A stretch of DNA of 7,932 nucleotides from a virus (IMGVR_UViG_2529293240_000012:1-7932), one strand, 5' to 3'; numbered from the stretch's first letter, positions 1-7,830 are shown. The notes: generated from the sequence alone by a model not told the origin. A program made the numbers and translations.

Positions 1-34
1 GTGTCGATGAGTCCGGAAAGTGCCGGTACATCAT

Positions 35-319
35 TCAGGCCGGGAAAATGGTGCTCTCCATCCACATATCCAGCTCTGAATCCGGTGCCTGTGCCCGAAT
101 GAAGACGGCAATATGCAGAACAGCCTGCCAGTCATCTTCATCCGTCATTTTTCCGGTGTACTGAGCATCACTCAGCCACACCGCCACGGCAGGCAGTTCC
201 TGCGCATCAATAAATGCCGGAAGCCCGTCAAAAAACGTGGCGCTGTCTCCACACTGTTCCCGAAGGCGTGCCAGTACGACCTGGCGGATCTGTGTATGTC
301 GGTTCATCGGGTCAGCCAT
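35..319 (-). CDS. Tail terminator protein, lambda gpU-like; reading frame broken near the 3' end (frameshift relative to gpU)
   Basis: The 94-aa ORF resembles lambda gpU as I recall it (ATFFDG..PAVAV..YTG...W...LHI.VF..AQ.PDSELD.WMES). A second ATG at 307 forms an ATGA overlap with the stop of the upstream Z-like gene and gives an N-terminus of gpU-like length; a GAGG lies just before the ATG at 319. The ORF stops at 35-37 (TGA), but the -1 frame continues LNDVPALSGLIDT to the window edge, matching the gpU region that follows (my recollection: DIPALSDLIT). Confidence 0.7.
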   Translation of the reverse strand: MADPMNRHTQIRQVVLARLREQCGDSATFFDGLPAFIDAQELPAVAVWLSDAQYTGKMTDEDDWQAVLHIAVFIRAQAPDSELDMWMESTIFPA

Positions 320-888
320 AACCTCAGTTGTTGTTTCAGTGCATACCCCAGCTGTTTCGGCATTTCCGCAGCAATGATGCGGTCGCGGGCATCTTCAAAT
401 GCCTGTGTCAGCGGTCCGGACAGCGGGATTTTCACCACATCAATGGGGTAACGATTTTTGCCGTCAATACGCCGCATCACATGCCAGCGACCATTCGCCA
501 GTTGCTGAATAAACGCATCCCGGAAAAGGTATTTCCCCACTTTCAGTACGCTGCCACGATGACGTGAGTTGCTGCCATGCCGGGAGCGGGCCAGTCTGAC
601 CTGTGCGGTACCCAGCTTAATGGCGGGCAGGTTACCCCGGTTAACACGCATGCGGGCATACATTTTTCCTGAGGGGCTGGCTTTAAGCAGCCTGACACGC
701 TCCCTGACCGTTTTCAGGGGAATACCTTTCACCTGGTTATCCCCGGCAACGGTATTCTGCGCAACCTGCCGTGTGGCGACAGAAATAATCTTTGCCGCCA
801 CACGGTTTACCGCCCATGCGCTGGCCTGTGGCACCATGCGGGTATCGAGGCTGTTCAGATTACGGATGGCATTCTCAAGCCCCTTCAT
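304..888 (-). CDS. Minor tail protein Z-like (lambda gpZ family, tail completion)
   Basis: 194-aa ORF whose size and position (just upstream of U) match lambda gpZ (about 192 aa). AGAGGTG Shine-Dalgarno about 6 nt upstream of the ATG at 886-888. Family assignment is from gene order plus recalled similarity. Confidence 0.65.
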   Translation of the reverse strand: MKGLENAIRNLNSLDTRMVPQASAWAVNRVAAKIISVATRQVAQNTVAGDNQVKGIPLKTVRERVRLLKASPSGKMYARMRVNRGNLPAIKLGTAQVRLARSRHGSNSRHRGSVLKVGKYLFRDAFIQQLANGRWHVMRRIDGKNRYPIDVVKIPLSGPLTQAFEDARDRIIAAEMPKQLGYALKQQLRLWLTR

Positions 889-899
889 CCCACACCTCT

Positions 900-1175
900 T
901 TACTCAATAAAGATCATTGGTTTACCGTTAAAGCGTTCATGCCGTGTGACCGTCCATTGTTGTCCGTCATAAACAACGCGGTCCCCGCGCCGTGGGCGGT
1001 ATCCCGAAGAAAACACCACCAGAGAGACCGCCGGTCCGGACAGAGCGTTCAGCTCTGCCAGAGTTTCTCCCGGGAGCACAGGCATATAAACATCATTAAT
1101 CGAGGCCATCTTTCCCATCTTTCTGACCGTGATCGCATCCATACGCGCTGCCAGCCGGGAAAAGGGATCAGACAT
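900..1175 (-). CDS. Head–tail joining protein at the lambda FII position (family often annotated as prophage ATP-binding sugar transporter-like)
   Basis: 91-aa ORF between the DUF2190-like gene and the Z-like gene, the position FII occupies in lambda (E-FI-FII-Z-U). Its ATG (1173-1175) overlaps the end of the upstream gene in an ATGnnTGA arrangement, suggesting translational coupling. Family call is from memory and is not certain. Confidence 0.5.
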   Translation of the reverse strand: MSDPFSRLAARMDAITVRKMGKMASINDVYMPVLPGETLAELNALSGPAVSLVVFSSGYRPRRGDRVVYDGQQWTVTRHERFNGKPMIFIE

Positions 1176-1491
1176 TGAGTTTTACCGGCACTTCTTCTGC
1201 ACCAGCTCCGGCATCTGCCCAGACAACCCCGACCAGCGGATCAGAGCCGCTGTTAGTCAGCTGAACTTTTCCGGACTTCAGAAAAACCTTCTTACCCGTT
1301 TTCATGTCATCCGTTTTCAGCTTAGGCAGCATAAACACACCTTCGGTCAGGCCGTCGCCTGTTTCACCCTGTGGAATATCGGTCAGCGCCACCGCAAAAA
1401 CATCACCCACCTGCACCAGATCTCCGCTGCTGATGGCTGCACTGGCAACAATCGCCACCGTTTTTCCTTCTTCTACAAAATTCTTTGCCAT
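1168..1491 (-). CDS. DUF2190-family small head protein (head decoration/cement-like)
   Basis: The ORF track starts at 1536, but an internal ATG at 1489-1491 is preceded by GGAGA 5-6 nt upstream and gives MAKNFVEEGKTV..., the typical DUF2190 N-terminus as I recall it. Sits immediately downstream of the capsid gene. 107 aa from this start. Confidence 0.6.
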   Translation of the reverse strand: MAKNFVEEGKTVAIVASAAISSGDLVQVGDVFAVALTDIPQGETGDGLTEGVFMLPKLKTDDMKTGKKVFLKSGKVQLTNSGSDPLVGVVWADAGAGAEEVPVKLNV

Positions 1492-1534
1492 AACTGTCTC
1501 CGCACAGCCCCGTTCAGGGGCTGATTTCAGGTAC

Positions 1535-1554
1535 AAAAAAAGCCCTTACGGGCC
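1535..1554 (-). terminator. Putative intrinsic terminator or attenuator downstream of the capsid gene
   Basis: On the minus strand, 21 nt after the capsid stop: G-GCCC-GUAA-GGGC-U followed by seven U (plus strand a7-gccc-ttac-gggc-c). The stem is only 4-5 bp but all G:C with a GNRA-type loop and a U7 tract. Lies in the 43-nt gap between the capsid stop (1578) and the DUF2190 start (1491). Confidence 0.35.
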
Positions 1555-1577
1555 ATCAGAGTTGTTGTCTGCGACGT

Positions 1578-3212
1578 TTACGCCGTACATTTCACCAGAC
1601 CGCGGTGATCAACTGGCGCAACACCAGCGTCAATACGCACTTTCGTTGTCACGCCATCCACACTGAAGCCCTCCATCTGATCAATATATGGCGTATCCAC
1701 ACCGTTGAGATAAGCCACTTCAATCGTATCGGAGCCTTTGGACGCTGCCAGATAAAAAGTGGTCTGGCTGTTATCATCAAGACGAGGCTCTGCAATAACG
1801 GTCGCAAAATCTTTCACCGGGTTAATAATACCGGCGTTAATGTCAGCCCCCTTGACACTTGAGGAGCGAATGACCTGGTTAGCAACAGACTCCATCGCCG
1901 TCGGTACCAGTACGAACGCAGGACGAATATTCAGATGACGCTCACCCTCTTTCTGAACACGCATCAACTGGCGGGCTTTATCCAGCGATGCCACGTCCAT
2001 TGCTGCGCTCTCCAGTACGTTTGCATGTTTCGCTTTATCGAACAGGCTTACATTATCTGTGGAGATTTTCGGGTTAGACGTCAGAATGGCATAAACCAGA
2101 TTGGCAATAGTGGATTTCGCCGCACGGCCCAGTTTCATCGGGACATCGGTCAGCATATTCAGATCATCGTTGATAATGGCCTGACGGGTGATACTGAACA
2201 GTTCACCATAGGTCGCCAGTGCAATCGTGGCCTGTTTATCTCCGGTAGTAACGTATTTATATTCCGCCCCTTCACGCACCTGACGCAGAGCACTGAAGCC
2301 CCCCATACCCACACGATGGGCAATTTTAAAATCAGACAGTTGACCTTTCCGCGTCCACTGTTCATAGGTTTCAGGGGCATCTTCCCAGCCCTGCAGAATG
2401 GCTTTGTTCGCAACATCCAGCAGAATATTACCGAAGTCAGACGTACTGTGTGTGAACGCTGCCCCGACCATCTGCATCGGGTTATAACCGGAAACCCCAA
2501 TACCCCGTTCAGTCAGTGACATACGGGCATATTCACGCAGGGTCATCCCGTTGTAGACATTATCACGTTCAGTTTTTTCAAACCCGGCACGCGCCATCAG
2601 CGCCTGGCGGATCCCGTCCCCCACAAAATTACCGTTTCCGGCATAAATATGGGCCGGGGTATTTTTATTTGATGGTGAAAATTCCTTACCCATTTCGTTA
2701 AGTAATTTCTCACGGGCCTGCTCAAGCGAGCACTCCGGATCGGAAAGACAACTGGCCTGCAATGTCTGATAACGCCCGCCAAACATACCAAACAGTTCAT
2801 TAATACCACTCACACGTGCTTTTTGCTCTGCCAGTACCTGCGCACGGATACTGCTTTCATCTGCGGAAGGTGCATTTGTGGTGGTCGCGGTTGTGGCAAC
2901 CTGAGCCGTAGTCTGCTCCTGTGTCTGAGATGCAGTATTTTTGTTTTCAGGTTCACGCGTTGCACTGTTGCGTGGCGGAGTAATCATGTTTCGAATGGAT
3001 TCCGGCATCTTTTTAAATTCCTCTGTACGTTTTGACTGAATACATGCCATTGCCTTAACGGCTGGCGTCACCTGATCAGCAAATCCATGTGCCAGACATT
3101 CGGCACCGGACATCCAGGTCTCATCCGCCAGCATGGCAGCAACTTCATCGGTGGTTTTCCCGGTTTTCTGTGCATAAGCGGGTAACAGAACCGCCTCAAC
3201 TTTATCGAGCAG
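1578..3212 (-). CDS. ClpP-like prohead protease–scaffold–major capsid fusion protein, 5' end interrupted by IS600 (probably a pseudogene)
   Basis: 518-aa ORF from the ATG at 3132-3134. The same frame stays open a further 26 codons upstream to the IS600 boundary at 3212 and only stops inside the IS. The residues just before and after the ATG (..AYAQKTGKTTDEVAAMLADETWMSGAECLAHGFADQV) match the C-terminal helix region of ClpP-type proteases. This is followed by a Thr/Ala/Gln-rich linker and about 400 aa of capsid-like sequence. The catalytic core of the protease is absent from the window. Confidence 0.75.
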   Translation of the reverse strand: MLDKVEAVLLPAYAQKTGKTTDEVAAMLADETWMSGAECLAHGFADQVTPAVKAMACIQSKRTEEFKKMPESIRNMITPPRNSATREPENKNTASQTQEQTTAQVATTATTTNAPSADESSIRAQVLAEQKARVSGINELFGMFGGRYQTLQASCLSDPECSLEQAREKLLNEMGKEFSPSNKNTPAHIYAGNGNFVGDGIRQALMARAGFEKTERDNVYNGMTLREYARMSLTERGIGVSGYNPMQMVGAAFTHSTSDFGNILLDVANKAILQGWEDAPETYEQWTRKGQLSDFKIAHRVGMGGFSALRQVREGAEYKYVTTGDKQATIALATYGELFSITRQAIINDDLNMLTDVPMKLGRAAKSTIANLVYAILTSNPKISTDNVSLFDKAKHANVLESAAMDVASLDKARQLMRVQKEGERHLNIRPAFVLVPTAMESVANQVIRSSSVKGADINAGIINPVKDFATVIAEPRLDDNSQTTFYLAASKGSDTIEVAYLNGVDTPYIDQMEGFSVDGVTTKVRIDAGVAPVDHRGLVKCTA

Positions 3213-3276
3213 TGAGGTAGCCTGAGTTTAACGGACACTCCTTCCTGAAATAGAATGGCATCAGAAGGAGCTAATA

Positions 3277-3579
3277 ATGAGCAGAAAAACCCAACGTTAC
3301 TCTAAAGAGTTCAAAGCCGAAGCTGTCAGAACGGTTCTTGAAAATCAACTTTCGATCAGTGAAGGCGCTTCCCGATTATCCCTTCCTGAAGGCACTTTAG
3401 GACAATGGGTTACCGCCGCCAGAAAAGGGCTCGGTACTCCTGGTTCCCGCACGGTGGCTGAACTGGAATCTGAAATTCTGCAACTGCGTAAGGCGTTAAA
3501 TGAAGCTCGCCTTGAGCGAGATATATTAAAAAAAGCAACAGCGTATTTTGCACAGGAGTCGCTGAAAAATACGCGTTAA
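3277..3579 (+). CDS. IS600-like transposase OrfA (HTH DNA-binding subunit)
   Basis: 100-aa ORF with AGGAG 8 nt upstream of the ATG. C-terminal leucine-zipper-like region (ELESEILQLRKALNEARLERDILKKATAYF) typical of IS3-family OrfA. Slippery run A AAA AAA at 3528-3534 near the 3' end. Confidence 0.85.
   Translation: MSRKTQRYSKEFKAEAVRTVLENQLSISEGASRLSLPEGTLGQWVTAARKGLGTPGSRTVAELESEILQLRKALNEARLERDILKKATAYFAQESLKNTR
3528..3534 (+). other. Probable programmed -1 ribosomal frameshift heptamer (A AAA AAA) joining IS600 orfA to orfB
   Basis: The heptamer is in the X XXY YYZ phase of orfA. A -1 slip gives ..KKSNSVFCTGVAEKYALIEQWRQQFPIEAMCQVFGVSRSGYY.., which is the orfB frame and a typical IS3-family OrfAB junction. 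Confidence 0.6.
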
Positions 3580-3614
3580 TCGAACAATGGCGACAACAAT
3601 TTCCCATTGAAGCG

Positions 3615-4434
3615 ATGTGTCAGGTATTTGGTGTATCCAGGAGCGGTTATTACAACTGGGTACAGCATGAACCCTCAGACAGAAAACAAAGTGATGAGCG
3701 GCTAAAACTGGAGATTAAGGTGGCACATATCCGCACTCGCGAAACATATGGAACCCGGCGGCTCCAGACGGAGCTGGCAGAGAATGGCATCATCGTTGGT
3801 CGTGACCGACTGGCACGTCTTCGTAAGGAGCTAAGGCTACGCTGTAAGCAGAAACGCAAGTTCAGAGCGACTACGAACCCGAACCACAATCTGCCAGTTG
3901 CGCCAAATCTGCTGAACCAGACGTTCGCTCCTACAGCACCAAATCAGGTCTGGGTGGCGGACCTGACGTATGTTGCCACACAGGAGGGATGGTTGTACCT
4001 CGCTGGCATCAAAGATGTTTATACGTGCGAAATTGTCGGCTACGCCATGGGAGAGCGCATGACAAAAGAGCTGACAGGTAAAGCCCTGTTTATGGCGCTC
4101 AGGAGCCAGCGCCCACCTGCCGGGCTAATCCACCACTCTGATCGAGGTTCACAGTACTGCGCATACGATTACCGGGTCATACAGGAGCAGTCTGGTCTGA
4201 AAACATCAATGTCGCGTAAAGGTAACTGTTACGACAACGCTCCGATGGAAAGCTTCTGGGGAACGCTAGAAAAATGAGAGCCTGAGCCACTATCGTTTTA
4301 ATAACCGGGATGAAGCCATCTCAGTAATACGGGAATACATTGAGATTTTCTACAATCGTCAGCGTCGTCACTCTCGTCTGGGGAATATCTCCCCGGCAGC
4401 CTTCAGGGAAAAATATCATCAGATGGCTGCTTAA
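3615..4434 (+). pseudogene. IS600-like transposase OrfB (DDE catalytic subunit), interrupted by a frameshift near 4265-4277
   Basis: The ORF from the ATG at 3615 ends at TGA 4275-4277 after 220 aa (..ESFWGTLEK*). The +1 frame continues immediately as NESLSHYRFNNRDEAISVIREYIEIFYNRQRRHSRLGNISPAAFREKYHQMAA to 4434, the conserved IS3-family OrfB C-terminus. 218+1+53 = 272 aa, the expected intact length. Consistent with a single-base insertion. Confidence 0.75.
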
Positions 4435-4477
4435 AAAAAGAACAAATGGTAGTGTCCGCTATTGCCAGTACACCTCA

Positions 4478-4602
4478 CTGTTCAGCATGGTTGTAACGAC
4501 AATTTCGGTGAAATACTTAGTGGGTAGCTCCTGACCGAATACCAGTACAGTTTCTTTGTCAGCGCTTAGTGCGATATCCAGTTTGCGATAAGTAATAGAC
4601 AT
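4478..4602 (-). pseudogene. 5' stub (41 codons) of a gene cut off by IS600; possibly the N-terminus of the ClpP-like protease
   Basis: ATG at 4600-4602 with AAGGAG 7 nt upstream. Encodes MSITYRKLDIALSADKETVLVFGQELPTKYFTEIVVTTMLN, then runs into the IS600 right end and stops 6 codons inside it. Weak resemblance to the ClpP N-terminal beta-strand region (..KERVIFLTGQVED..IVAQML..). Not in frame with the 3' part across the IS. Confidence 0.35.
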
Positions 4603-4707
4603 ATTTGTTTCTCCTTTTGAAAAGATGTTTTAAAAAGATTGAACTTATCGGTCTTCCATAGGTATTCCTACGGCGTCTCCCCGTATCTTGGTCAGTTCAA
4701 AAGGTGG

Positions 4708-4724
4708 TGCTAGCTGTGCTAGTG
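4708..4724. repeat. 17-bp exact repeat TGCTAGCTGTGCTAGTG containing the palindrome CTAGC-TGT-GCTAG (copy 1, intergenic)
   Basis: Identical 17-mer also at 4937-4953, with flanks similar over about 21 bp. This copy lies 34 bp downstream of the 74-aa ORF stop and is followed by a (TGA)4 run. Confidence 0.6.
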
Positions 4725-4757
4725 GTGATGATGATGACGATGAACTACGTGGGTTAA

Positions 4758-4982
4758 TTACATGAAATCTCTTGGGGTCAGCCCTGCGTCAACCGCCATG
4801 AGACAGAGGGCAGCCTTAGAGTAATACGGGCGGATTTCCTTGGCAGGCAGACCCAGAGTAGCTATCAGCGCCTTGGTGGGTACTACCATCAGGCGTAACG
4901 CCTTACGGCCTTCTGGTGTCCTTGGGTCAATCTTGATGCTAGCTGTGCTAGTGATGTTGGTGCCATTTGTGTTATTATTCAT
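4758..4982 (-). CDS. Hypothetical small protein (74 aa), translationally coupled to the upstream Rha-family gene
   Basis: ATG at 4980-4982 overlaps the Rha gene stop (minus strand ..CATGAATAA..) and is preceded by GGAGGAGG. Asn/Thr-rich N-terminus followed by a more ordinary 50-aa region. I recognise no family. Confidence 0.5.
   Translation of the reverse strand: MNNNTNGTNITSTASIKIDPRTPEGRKALRLMVVPTKALIATLGLPAKEIRPYYSKAALCLMAVDAGLTPRDFM
4937..4953. repeat. 17-bp exact repeat TGCTAGCTGTGCTAGTG (copy 2, inside the 5' end of the 74-aa ORF)
   Basis: Exact copy of 4708-4724 in the same orientation, 229 bp away. On the minus strand it encodes ITSTAS near the N-terminus of the 74-aa protein. Confidence 0.6.
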
Positions 4983-5676
4983 GAATTACCTCCTCCAGCC
5001 TTGCTACTGCCTGTAGGTGTTGCTGTTTAGCAGCGTCGCTTCCATGAACCGCTATGACCTTTCCGCGCATCTTGAGTACGTTTTCAGGTCGGCTGAAGAA
5101 CTCCAGTCCCTTGGCGTTAAACCGAATGTTTATACCGTTCGGGTTGAATCGATGGTCAGTAGGTTTGATAATTCGAAAGTATTCCGCATAGTCTGGATTG
5201 ACTGACCACTCGCCACTGAAAGGATGTACTCGGAACAACTTGCGCTCTTTCTTAAGGATGGTCATCAGTTTCTGAGCGGGTAGACCATTGGCCTTGCAGT
5301 AATCGCCCCAAGTCACGCCTCGACGGTTAGCCGACTGAATGACCGCTCGTTTCTTCTGGTCTTCCAGTTGAAGGACTCTCTGTTCTAACGCCTGAATATG
5401 GTCGTAGCATTTAGCACGGAGGCGAGCAGAATAACCAGCGACCAGAATAAAGGTATGCTTTCGGTCTAGGCGATACATTACCCGGCTCTCGCCTTTAGCG
5501 TCCTTGTATACTTCCTCGCTAACCGGCTCAGTTTTGAGCGCGTTAAGCTCCTCAACCATATTGCGAATATCACGCAGGACATTTCGGTGTGCCTTGCCTG
5601 TCATCTCGGCAATTTCAACTGAGGTCATGGAGATAAGCTGGTCAAGGTTAATGACGCTGATTCCTTGTTGAGACAT
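4975..5676 (-). CDS. Phage regulatory protein, Rha family (antirepressor-like; N-terminal Rha domain plus a C-terminal domain of uncertain type)
   Basis: From the ATG at 5674-5676 (AAGGAAA about 8 nt upstream) the product is 233 aa. N-terminus MSQQGISVINLDQLISMTSVEIAEMTGKAHRNVLRDIRNMVEEL matches the Rha-domain signature (..EIAE.TGK.H.NVLRDI..). The longer ORF-track start at 5772 adds an implausible Leu/Val/Arg-rich extension and has no ribosome-binding site. Confidence 0.7.
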   Translation of the reverse strand: MSQQGISVINLDQLISMTSVEIAEMTGKAHRNVLRDIRNMVEELNALKTEPVSEEVYKDAKGESRVMYRLDRKHTFILVAGYSARLRAKCYDHIQALEQRVLQLEDQKKRAVIQSANRRGVTWGDYCKANGLPAQKLMTILKKERKLFRVHPFSGEWSVNPDYAEYFRIIKPTDHRFNPNGINIRFNAKGLEFFSRPENVLKMRGKVIAVHGSDAAKQQHLQAVARLEEVIHE

Positions 5677-5818
5677 AGCTTGATTTCCTTTTGTTTGCAC
5701 CCTGAAGCCGCACCCCACTGGCCTACTCAAAGTCCCCAAGCGAAGGGAGACCAGCAGGACAACAGGATGCAAACAGAATGACTTTGAGATTGAATGAATG
5801 AATGGTGATGATTGTGTC

Positions 5819-5836
5819 GTAGCTGTGCGGAGCTAC
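5819..5836. repeat. Inverted repeat GTAGCT-GTGCGG-AGCTAC upstream of the Rha-family gene; shares TAGCTGTGC with the 17-bp repeats
   Basis: 6-bp arms with a 6-bp spacer, about 145 bp upstream of the Rha start and about 50 bp from the IS2 left end. The 9-mer TAGCTGTGC is common to all three sites. Confidence 0.3.
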
Positions 5837-5977
5837 TGTATGGTGAAGCGCGAGAGGTGGAACTTTGGGAGAGACACGTGGTGCTATAGACTGGCCCCCT
5901 GAATCTCCAGACAACCAGTATCACTTATTTAAGTGATAGTCTTAATACTAGTTTTTAGACTAGTCATTGGAGAACAG

Positions 5978-6343
5978 ATGATTGATGTCTTAGGGCCGGA
6001 GAAACGCAGACGGCGTACCACACAGGAAAAGATCGCAATTGTTCAGCAGAGCTTTGAACCGGGGATGACGGTCTCCCTCGTTGCCCGGCAACATGGTGTA
6101 GCAGCCAGCCAGTTATTTCTCTGGCGTAAGCAATACCAGGAAGGAAGTCTTACTGCTGTGGCCGCCGGAGAACAGGTTGTTCCTGCCTCTGAACTTGCTG
6201 CCGCCATGAAGCAGATTAAAGAACTCCAGCGCCTGCTCGGCAAGAAAACGATGGAAAATGTACTCCTCAAAGAAGCCGTTGAATATGGACGGGCAAAAAA
6301 GTGGATAGCGCACGCGCCCTTATTGCCCGGGGATGGGGAGTAA
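5978..6343 (+). CDS. insC: IS2 transposase OrfA (InsC)
   Basis: 121-aa product [41 protein letters not shown].. from the ATG at 5978 with GGAGAA upstream. The ORF track starts at 5933, but that start lies partly in the terminal inverted repeat. Slippery A AAA AAG at 6295-6301. Confidence 0.9.
6295..6301 (+). other. IS2 programmed -1 frameshift site (A AAA AAG) for the OrfAB fusion transposase
   Basis: The heptamer is in the orfA phase (gca AAA AAG tgg) at the start of the orfA/orfB overlap. This is the known IS2 frameshift window. Confidence 0.8.
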
Positions 6344-7206
6344 GCTTAGTCAGCCGTTGTCTCCGGGTGTCGCGTGCGCAGTTGCACGTCATTCTCAGAC
6401 GAACCGATGACTGGATGGATGGCCGCCGCAGTCGTCACACTGATGATACGGATGTGCTTCTCCGTATACACCATGTTATCGGAGAGCTGCCCACGTATGG
6501 TTATCGTCGGGTATGGGCGCTGCTTCGCAGACAGGCAGAACTTGATGGTATGCCTGCGATCAATGCCAAACGTGTTTACCGGATCATGCGCCAGAATGCG
6601 CTGTTGCTTGAGCGAAAACCTGCTGTACCGCCATCGAGACGGGCACATACAGGCAGAGTAGCCGTGAAAGAAAGCAATCAGCGATGGTGCTCTGACGGGT
6701 TCGAGTTCTGCTGTGATAACGGAGAGAGACTGCGTGTCACGTTCGCGCTGGACTGCTGTGATCGTGAGGCACTGCACTGGGCGGTGACTACCGGCGGCTT
6801 CAACAGTGAAACAGTACAGGACGTCATGCTGGGAGCGGTGGAACGCCGCTTCGGCAACGATCTTCCGTCGTCTCCAGTGGAGTGGCTGACGGATAATGGT
6901 TCATGCTACCGGGCTAATGAAACACGCCAGTTCGCCCGGATGTTGGGACTTGAACCGAAGAACACGGCGGTGCGGAGTCCGGAGAGTAACGGAATAGCAG
7001 AGAGCTTCGTGAAAACGATAAAGCGTGACTACATCAGTATCATGCCCAAACCAGACGGGTTAACGGCAGCAAAGAACCTTGCAGAGGCGTTCGAGCATTA
7101 TAACGAATGGCATCCGCATAGTGCGCTGGGTTATCGCTCGCCACGGGAATATCTGCGGCAGCGGGCTTGTAATGGGTTAAGTGATAACAGATGTCTGGAA
7201 ATATAG
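6301..7206 (+). CDS. insD: IS2 transposase OrfB (InsD, DDE catalytic domain)
   Basis: 301-aa ORF starting at GTG 6301, matching IS2 InsD as I recall it; uninterrupted. Confidence 0.9.
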
Positions 7207-7830
7207 GGGCAAATCCAGAGAGTTCTCCGCTTCATATTGCTCAAAGAGGCTCGCTATGGTAATGCTAGGCGTAACTTCTGGTTTTACTTCTGGAGCACTA
7301 ACAGATAGGGACACAGGGGCTTGGTCATCTTGCCGATCAATATCATTAAAACGATCGACGTAATCTATCAGAGGCTGACTATCTCCCGCTTCGATACGCC
7401 TCATACAGGCTTTTAGCACCTTCAGGGCCTCATTGATGTAACGATGCTGGTCAATACTTAGCGGCTCACTAGCCAGAGCATCGGTAAGGCTCTCACCAAG
7501 TTCTCCGTATTGGTCCCGGTAGATATCCCTCATGTCAGGCTCAAAGAGATCTGAACGGCCCATAGACAGTTCACACTCAGCGATGTCCTTAAGGTGCTCC
7601 CTCATCTCCTCATAGGTAGCGTTGGGTCTGTCTGCGTGTATTGCCTTGAGTGCTGCCTTGATGTGCCTTGAGTGAGCCATAGCGGTGCGTCTATCCTTGG
7701 TCCGTAATGATACTGAGGTCATTCTATCATTGTTTGATTGTCTGACCCGAAGACGGAAGTAGTAGACGCCGTTACGCTGGTAGAGATAGGAGACGGCTGG
7801 AAGTTTGTGACTACTGGATAGCTGAATCAT
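7177..7830 (-). CDS. Tyrosine integrase-like protein, N-terminal fragment (arm-type DNA-binding domain); 3' end replaced by IS2
   Basis: N-terminus ..[38 protein letters not shown].. fits the arm-binding motif of phage integrases (compare the ..SLGTKDKRQA.. segment I recall from DLP12 IntD). The last 13 codons and the stop lie inside the IS2 right inverted repeat (7177-7217), so the native gene is cut at 7218. No downstream catalytic domain in the window. The frame is also open upstream of the ATG at 7830 to the window edge, but that extension does not look coding. Confidence 0.45.

Follow-up and report, generated by a model that had tools for sequence, protein, structure and literature searches.

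The window analyzed here is the whole of a 7,932-nucleotide stretch of viral DNA (IMGVR_UViG_2529293240_000012:1-7932). It contains the 17-bp sequence TGCTAGCTGTGCTAGTG twice, at 4708-4724 and at 4937-4953, exactly and in the same orientation on the plus strand. One copy lies inside a small gene of 74 codons (ORF74) and the other lies in the spacer that follows its stop codon; the relevant genes are all on the minus strand. Comparison with related loci suggests that the two copies are probably (about 0.7) neutral or nearly neutral products of slippage and template switching within one family of 9-bp variable-number tandem repeats (VNTRs). This family is found in small integrative islands, of which the window carries only a remnant truncated by insertion sequences (ISs). 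The data can be explained without any sequence-specific regulatory function.

The first-pass annotation had reported the repeat pair, and the report was borne out in a chance test: across 200 dinucleotide-preserving shuffles the mean number of matches was 0.02, and no shuffle contained two. No further match to TGCTAGCTGTGCTAGTG was found in the window when up to three mismatches were allowed. A repeat finder extended the likeness of the two copies to 29 nt at 86% identity (4705-4733 versus 4934-4962). A gapped local alignment of the 5' region of ORF74 with the post-stop spacer recovered only 29 nt, and the flanks scored like shuffled sequence. A long ancient duplication is ruled out by these shuffle-like flanks and by the short alignable length, which does not exceed 29 nt.

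The fine structure of the 17-mer is TGCTAG-CTG-TGCTAG-TG, that is, two units of a 9-bp direct repeat whose sense strand reads ACTAGCAC(C/A), and the repeat finder placed in-register copies at 9-nt spacing within the D1 repeat family of the window. The units stand head to tail at a constant period of 9, as in a tandem repeat; because each site in the window has only two of them, neither looks like a tandem array at first sight. The inverted repeat CTAGC/GCTAG that had been described in each copy does exist as a stem, but it follows from the 9-bp direct repeat, because CTAG is self-complementary and one flanking base on each side adds to it.

Copy 1 (4937-4953, minus strand) was placed by exact match and reading frame within codons 10-16 of ORF74, where it takes in the third base of codon 10, the whole of codons 11-15 and the first base of codon 16. 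Its two units, CACTAGCAC AGCTAGCA in the sense direction, are read as C ACT AGC ACA GCT AGC A, which encodes T-S-T-A-S at codons 11-15. Copy 2 (4708-4724, minus strand, exact match) consists of two units in the post-stop spacer, at the position that a 9-bp VNTR occupies in related islands. It starts 33 nt past the TAA stop of ORF74 (4758-4760) and adjoins a (TGA)4 run, which is a (TCA)n run in the sense direction, at about 4727-4741. The earlier placement of one copy inside the start of the small reading frame and of the other beyond its stop, beside (TGA)4, was thus correct. Copy 2 and the (TCA)n run together lie in a variable post-stop segment of 54 nt (4704-4757, minus strand), the sense strand of which is 11% G. 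The 15-mer CATCGTCATCATCAT (4728-4742), beside copy 2, recurs in the leader of eight related islands (L137-L144).

Unit number across related islands

To examine the two sites in other alleles, we compared 27 related loci and tabulated both sites for the loci of the other ORF74 alleles. The related islands examined are collinear, with the order integrase, leader, a Rha or KilA-N gene, ORF74, a DUF6971 gene and a gene for a 373-aa protein. Among the homologous alleles, the tail site (the N-terminal coding site of ORF74) has 0, 1, 2, 3 or 5 units, and the post-stop site has 0, 2, 3, 4, 6 or 9 units of (ACTAG[C/T]ACC)n between identical flanks. The identity of the ORF core across the compared loci is 88-100%, and it is 100% in the set with 3-9 post-stop units. 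The clearest series is L137-L144, in which the ORF core is 99.4-100% identical to that of L138 (7 of 8 at 100%) while the post-stop segment, TTAACCAAT(ACTAG[C/T]ACC)nACTAGCTATC, carries 2, 3, 3, 4, 6, 6, 9 and 9 CTAG units. Copy number therefore differs between alleles with conserved flanks, which is what defines a VNTR, and the program Tandem Repeats Finder (TRF) scored the arrays of the related islands at 2.7-8.7 copies. Indels of 9 and 21 nt at the N-terminus change the tail by whole codons, as expected of a coding array.

The two sites do not change together. Three post-stop units and no tail unit are present in L195-L199; three tail units and no post-stop unit are present in L190-L194, which occupy another integration site; and L200 combines five tail units with a post-stop site that lacks the unit. 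L001, at 89% identity the nearest locus from E. coli, has one tail unit and a diverged two-unit version of the post-stop array, and L003 has no tail unit. To judge from these alleles, both sites are VNTRs, and they vary independently of each other. The motif is thus linked by position to this operon in homologous loci and does not appear to be a common dispersed repeat at the level of the 17-mer, so that the refuting condition named in the first-pass annotation did not arise, but the link is of another nature than the one proposed there. Its suggestion of a footprint of duplication or recombination gains support from the variable copy number in near-identical islands and from a templated insertion described below.

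The lineage of the window comprises 7 identical copies (the window, L145, L147-L150 and the window's own reverse, L146), in which both sites have two units. The spacer copy of this lineage is ACTAGCACA-GCTAGCACC, whereas the usual spacer units of the relatives are ACTAGCACC-ACTAGCACC. The two bases that set the window spacer apart ('AG', in the ...CACAGCT... junction) are those of the N-terminal copy, and over 24 nt the window spacer copy agrees at 23 positions with the 3' end of the leader array in L001 and L003. The shared unit junction, together with this likeness to the leader array, accounts for the 17-nt identity of the two copies in the window. In the relatives the unit sequence drifts, with CTAG becoming CCAG or CTGG, and the distance to the start codons varies. 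The cross-genus homologues (K. pneumoniae ATCC 13883, a Pseudescherichia metagenome-assembled genome (MAG), Enterobacteriaceae RIT691 and a Klebsiella-type island in E. coli) do not have the motif; unrelated short repeats occupy the same two places. In L003 (E. coli 21AR0133), the post-stop array is interrupted at its second CTAG by ISEc68, an element of the IS5 family, and CTAG-rich arrays may be targets for IS5-type elements.

The coding array lies in a part of ORF74 that varies at the protein level as well. In the 35 homologues of ORF74 the core, IKIDPRTPEGRKALRLM...LCLMA, is invariant, while the N-terminal tail is hypervariable and ranges from absent to about 20 T/S/N residues; ORF74 is, by this pattern of conservation, a real gene. 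No homologous island lacks it, whether the arrays are there or not. The protein has no match in Pfam, PHROG or PADLOC. An AlphaFold (AF2) model with a predicted local distance difference test (pLDDT) score of 80.7 has a confidently modeled core of four helices, and residues 1-21 form a low-confidence tail that is predicted to be disordered. A Foldseek search of the model against the PDB gave no neighbor better than E = 3 and no recognizable DNA-binding fold.

The unit is also found away from these two sites. Direct repeats of CTAGCA at a fixed 9-bp spacing occur at up to five junctions in the related islands; L001 and L003 carry arrays of 4-5 units of CCACTAGCA upstream of Rha, and L200 has three units in the spacer between DUF6971 and the next gene. 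In that next gene, L200 contains a 36-nt in-frame insertion at the N-terminus (1443-1478), which extends the tail of the protein by 12 residues. AAAGC microhomology flanks the insertion on both sides, and within it 18 nt reproduce the 3' end of Rha exactly (508-525, ~940 nt upstream), together with a 15-nt copy of the array. Because it carries the 18-nt Rha copy, the insertion was evidently templated; as read from this allele, L200 is direct evidence for templated, microhomology-mediated insertion, and it provides a clear natural case in which a templated insertion between microhomologies has built up a protein's N-terminal tail. Ectopic copying is also indicated by the recurrence of CATCGTCATCATCAT in the leader of L137-L144 and by a leader motif within the Rha gene of L001.

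Apart from the 9-bp family, the islands abound in VNTRs. L138 and L142, for instance, carry different copy numbers of the AT-rich 49-bp repeats, of the 13-bp repeats and of the CTATAGGTCTCT arrays. The Rha gene opens with a 9-bp coding repeat, and the island contains further A/C-rich N-terminal repeats, CAACAACCA in Rha and ACTAATAAC in ORF74. The Rha gene of L001 (E. coli LR-64-1) is frameshifted and holds a 36-bp tandem repeat in 2.9 copies (4912-5017), which carries CTCAGTTTTGAGC, elsewhere a motif of the island-leader arrays. Near the end of the integrase gene, a 13-bp unit, GTCATCGCCTATG, is repeated 2.5-13.5 times and is followed by (CACA[C/T]AGGAC)n (L018 5914-6088; L001 6381-6412); these arrays could be recombinase arm-type sites.

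We propose that the 9-bp family settles in places that tolerate indels, namely the disordered N-terminal tail of ORF74 and the untranslated post-stop spacer, where arrays would lengthen and shorten by replication slippage. New sites would be seeded by microhomology-mediated template switching or by ectopic conversion within the island, and the exact 17-nt identity in the window would reflect the shared origin of its two copies. The short inverted repeat would come along with the CTAG unit and would at most favor misalignment. The effects would probably be small: the tail of ORF74 would change in length in 3-residue steps, the distance from the ORF74 stop to a conserved intergenic element and the DUF6971 start would shift in 9-nt steps, and the 17-bp direct repeat pair could delete ORF74 through recombination.

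We consider it very unlikely that the direct repeats are recombination linkers, serving module exchange or a programmed loss of ORF74, or that they are the target-site duplication of an inserted cassette. Such roles would agree with the placement of units at gene junctions, with the copying of motifs between sites and with the bracketing of ORF74 by the 17-bp direct repeat; deletion between short direct repeats was reportedly efficient in T7-type replication in the T7 deletion studies of the Masker laboratory. However, the presence of ORF74 in every homologous island regardless of the arrays means that the repeats are not insertion scars, which removes the target-site duplication. Recombination between the copies would yield a truncated 18-aa product (predicted junction ...AACATCACTAGCACAGCTAGCACCACCTTTTG...), the related islands keep a collinear order, and no deletion allele turned up among the loci examined, in which no search was aimed at one.

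Hairpin, binding-site and RNA-composition alternatives

The first-pass annotation had offered a processing or terminator hairpin as one role of the inverted repeat. As RNA, each copy can form a CUAGC/GCUAG stem of 5 bp with a 3-nt loop at -4.6 kcal/mol, and in 33-nt windows the folding check did predict this stem in each case, more stable than in shuffled sequence (z = -3.1 and -4.8). In longer contexts, however, the local fold was no better than that of shuffles (z = +0.22 and -1.5), and the usual units of the relatives, ACTAGCACC ACTAGCACC, retain only a 4-bp CTAG/CTAG pairing. No terminator-like site was found in 4400-5900, where the stem is not followed by the U-tract of an intrinsic terminator, and a search of 4300-5950 on both strands gave no Rfam match at E <= 1. 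One of the copies, moreover, is in a translated region. With its weak energy, its missing U-tract and its unconserved pairing, a terminator or processing hairpin was rejected, and it is extremely unlikely that each copy acts as an RNA hairpin on the operon mRNA, whether as a processing site, a 3'-end stabilizer or a terminator.

The second role that had been suggested was that of operator sites. In a broader form, the units would be binding sites (operators or iterons) before each gene for an island protein, such as the Rha-like protein, or for a protein of a helper phage. The CTAGCA repeats at up to five junctions, with their fixed 9-bp spacing, and the adjoining Rha/Ant-like regulator gene would fit such sites, and so would the variable number of units, since iteron number also varies in some replicons. 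The homologous loci, however, do not conserve the sequence, number or position of the units relative to a promoter or origin, as operators or iterons would require. There are 0-9 units per site, some intact islands have none at one site or the other, the sequence drifts, and the distance to the start codon is not constant. No sigma-70-like promoter was predicted on the gene strand in 4400-5900. With a 9-bp period, neighboring sites would also face different sides of the helix, the cross-genus homologues lack the motif, and ORF74 has no recognizable DNA-binding fold. We therefore regard binding sites as quite improbable.

Outside the islands, the unit appears in unrelated settings. In the compared loci the arrays are located only inside islands, and the island variant of the window is present in 2 of 5,426 complete E. 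coli genomes; the array itself, used as a BLAST query against the E. coli genomes, gave no match, possibly through low-complexity masking. The exact 17-mer is present in 11 of 2.9 million viral contigs, five of which are unrelated singletons and six of which belong to one T7-like family; by our own estimate, the independent viral matches are at about chance level. The degenerate pattern TGCTAGN3TGCTAGN3TGCTAG was set aside as uninformative, as it is present in >120 unrelated viral contigs, many of them giant-virus MAGs. The exact 27-nt three-unit array was found in 39 unrelated metagenome contigs with GC contents of 23-64%, and no contig resembled the islands. With few exceptions the arrays are parts of open frames, several hundred to several thousand nucleotides long, that read (TTS)n, (GAS)n or (PLA)n. 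Such independent arrays indicate that the unit, as a tri-codon repeat, is prone to expansion in general and is not a specific recognition site.

The six related contigs represent one uncultured phage family of the T7 supergroup from human feces (L007-L010, L014 and L015; MT838157 and relatives). Here the 17-mer lies within a 17-bp VNTR of 1-5 copies (for example, L015 10273-10351) that is made up of the final codons and stop codon of the portal gene and lies directly ahead of the scaffold gene. The repeat is in the sense orientation at a post-stop junction, as in the islands, and its identity with the window spacer copy reaches 19 nt. A BLAST comparison of the gut phages with the islands found nothing in common beyond the 17-19-mer, and on this evidence the match is probably coincidence or convergence.

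Several points weigh against neutral slippage and template switching as the origin of the arrays. Both processes are read from the comparison of alleles, a near-identical junction VNTR exists in the T7-like gut phages, and no donor of the unusual spacer segment of the window was found. All arrays are in the sense orientation relative to the genes, and they sit at gene junctions, which possibly reflects function and not mere tolerance. In addition, the sense strand of the variable segments is 4-11% G, compared with 23% for the operon, and the G-poverty of the post-stop segment persists in the Klebsiella-type and Pseudescherichia loci despite their different sequence. This persistence across genera hints at selection on composition.

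Selection of this kind would apply if the arrays were kept as C/A-rich, G-poor, weakly structured RNA tracts whose unit number tunes the distal genes. A tract could serve as a Rho-loading site, similar to a Rho utilization (rut) site, as a ribosome standby site, or as an anti-structure spacer placed downstream of the ORF74 stop and near start codons. The low G content of the tail and post-stop segments across genera whose sequences differ, the other A/C-rich N-terminal repeats and the constant sense orientation are all consistent with this proposal, as is the weaker fold of the 9-unit array (-11.0 kcal/mol) relative to typical 81-mers of the island (-15.9 +/- 4.4 kcal/mol). Yet the same array is more structured than its own shuffles (-11.0 versus -4.1). 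Predicted start-site accessibility showed no trend with unit number and was not raised by the units: it was 0.61-0.65 in alleles that have 0-3 units and 0.38 in L200, the only allele with five. The composition is rut-like (38-40% C, 10-11% G), but the tract of the window is only ~54 nt long, where a rut site is an unstructured, untranslated stretch of roughly 60-80 nt, and some islands have none: intact islands occur without post-stop units (L190-L194, L200) or without tail units (L195-L199, L003). The window itself also has no promoter region. We consider an RNA-tract function unlikely.

The islands and their phage-type promoters

The remainder of the window, which is contig AFOW01000038.1 of GCA_000217895.2, shows how the island fragment was truncated. 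Lambda-like head and tail genes, 95% identical to those of mEp460-type phages, occupy 1-3212, and an IS3-family element (3213-4485) interrupts the DUF6971 gene. Of this gene a 5' fragment remains at 4486-4602 (minus strand), with the first ~39 codons and positions 1-36 only of the PF22318 profile; the intact gene of the relatives encodes 136 aa. Just upstream of its ribosome-binding site, a 13-bp tandem repeat of 1.9 copies (4615-4639, minus strand; sense unit CAAAACATCTTTT) forms a second VNTR, with 1-3 copies across the islands. Directly 3' of copy 2 is the conserved intergenic element of ~62 nt (4639-4700, minus strand), which has an outer stem (UUGAACU/AGUUCAA), a central hairpin and conserved GACC..CGGGGAGAC and GACCGAUA boxes. 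The element is retained as far as the Klebsiella and Pseudescherichia loci, where the sequence of the central hairpin differs, and it has no Rfam match; it may be a structured RNA.

The gene of ORF74 (4758-4982, minus strand), which encodes a small conserved protein, begins within the end of a Rha/Ant-like regulator gene (4975-5676, minus strand) that encodes 233 aa from an ATG at 5676 and matches PF09669 with E = 1.2e-17. The regulator gene was called in L146, and its L138 orthologue matches PHROG anti-repressor families. The overlap of the Rha stop with the ORF74 start, ATGAATAA (4975-4982), suggests that the two genes may be translationally coupled. Further upstream, TAGCACCAC (5878-5886, minus strand) adjoins the end of IS2; it is possibly the remnant of a third, leader array of the 9-bp unit, since the arrays upstream of Rha in L001 and L003 (4-5 units) finish in ...CTAGCACCA.

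IS2 itself (5887-7217, plus strand) is flanked by the pentamers CTCTC and TAGCA, with no matching 5-bp target duplication, and the differing pentamers tie it to a deletion. The N-terminal part of an integrase gene (7218-7830) adjoins the other end of IS2 and is truncated there. Judged against the intact islands L001 and L138, this arrangement implies that an IS2-associated deletion took the 3' part of the integrase gene and the promoter/leader region, probably ~2 kb of the island. The resulting fragment, with Rha, ORF74 and the truncated DUF6971 gene, is bounded by IS2 and the IS3-family element and joined to the lambda-like head and tail genes. The same IS-flanked fragment is present in CP100042.1, within a lambdoid prophage downstream of the Q antiterminator region. 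Such an arrangement indicates a probable IS-mediated relocation of the island fragment into the prophage.

Intact islands are ~5 kb long, bear an integrase and have four to five genes; they occur in E. coli, Shigella-like genomes, Klebsiella and relatives, either at tRNA-Gly next to actS or at a second site. The 373-aa protein has no match in Pfam, PHROG or PADLOC. All intact islands examined contain 1-4 matches to phage RNA-polymerase promoters, which lie on the strand of the genes in the interval that separates the integrase from the first gene (L001 5300-6420; L138 3200-4240; and L002, L004, L005, L006, L018, L019 and L190-L195). The E. coli-type islands have the exact T7 class III consensus TAATACGACTCACTATAGGGAGA, the Klebsiella-type islands, with K11-type promoters, have TAATACGACTCACTATAGGGAGA and AATTAGGGCACACTATAGGGAGA, and the islands of other genera have variants such as GCTAGCGACTCACTATAGGGAGA. 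In BLAST searches these boxes matched annotated T7 promoters as well as 7-8 mostly unannotated places per genome in ~40-kb Klebsiella podophages. Downstream of the boxes there are AT-rich 49-bp repeats and then GGGTC/TGGTC-rich arrays. The boxes with the AT-rich repeats may resemble a T7 replication origin, and the GGGTC/TGGTC motif may resemble T7 primase recognition sites. In the layout of the islands, T7/K11-type promoters, AT-rich repeats and dense short-repeat arrays all stand upstream of a four-gene operon; in the window this promoter/leader region is missing, beside IS2.

Of the 5,426 complete E. coli genomes, 90 carry one leader type, which is always chromosomal and unannotated and is absent from plasmids, and 111 further genomes have a Klebsiella-type ORF74 region. 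A full-text literature search found no description of T7-promoter-bearing islands or of DUF6971. Taken together, the layout suggests that the islands may be a satellite or defense element wired to T7-like virulent phages.

Combined with T7-type promoters, a G-poor RNA tract could silence the distal genes under the host polymerase and be read through by the phage polymerase. The arrays would then be tunable cis-elements of an undescribed Enterobacteriaceae island family wired to T7-group phages, with copy number setting the threshold; the distal DUF6971 and 373-aa genes could be off under the host polymerase and on with a T7-like phage polymerase. We give this proposal little credence. If it were true, the gut phage VNTR would be the product of phage-island exchange and not a coincidence. 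The island family is the larger lead of this study: if its members are satellites of virulent T7-like phages, or defenses triggered by them, they would represent new biology.

Comparison with known systems

As a kind of feature, the repeat is known and ordinary. Its value is partly corrective, as a pair of operator-like palindromic 17-mers turns out to be the two-unit remnant of a hypervariable repeat, which advises caution in motif-based searches for regulons. The arrays may also be usable as a typing marker, with a copy number that differs between close Shigella and E. coli islands. In this respect they are similar to the bacterial VNTR or minisatellite loci used for multiple-locus VNTR analysis (MLVA) typing in E. 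coli and Shigella, where short head-to-tail units are polymorphic in copy number in otherwise identical alleles. The ORF74 array is similar to in-frame coding tandem repeats, which change in multiples of three bases and lengthen a low-complexity, disordered segment. Unlike a usual VNTR, however, one 9-bp unit recurs at several sites of an element of ~5 kb, where it is invariably sense-oriented and confined to gene junctions.

The gain and loss of units, the 36-nt templated insertion with its 5-nt microhomology and the inverted repeat within the units resemble slipped-strand mispairing and template switching. The work of Ripley and Lovett in E. coli is said to have dealt with template switching mediated by quasi-palindromes and microhomology. 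The difference from those mutational systems is that the mechanism in the islands is deduced from the comparison of alleles.

Short direct repeats in non-coding DNA beside regulatory genes also recall the iterons and operators of plasmids, phages and phage-inducible islands, although the number, sequence and presence of the island units are not conserved, one copy is coding, and there is no promoter or origin signature at these sites. A small inverted repeat between cistrons likewise recalls intrinsic terminators and processing hairpins, such as the RNase III sites of T7 mRNAs; the repeat differs from these in its 5-bp stem, the absence of a U-tract, its unconserved pairing and the lack of an Rfam family.

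For the island, and not for the repeat, the nearest concept is PICMI (PMC10803314), a group of minimalist satellites of virulent phages. No report was found in the literature that PICMI uses phage RNA-polymerase promoters. The hosts, the integration site and the genes differ between the two, and the islands are known here from their sequence alone. Like PICMI, the islands are very small, bear an integrase and have few genes and no capsid genes; their promoters of the virulent T7 group suggest that they may depend on, or sense, a virulent phage, as a further likeness to PICMI.

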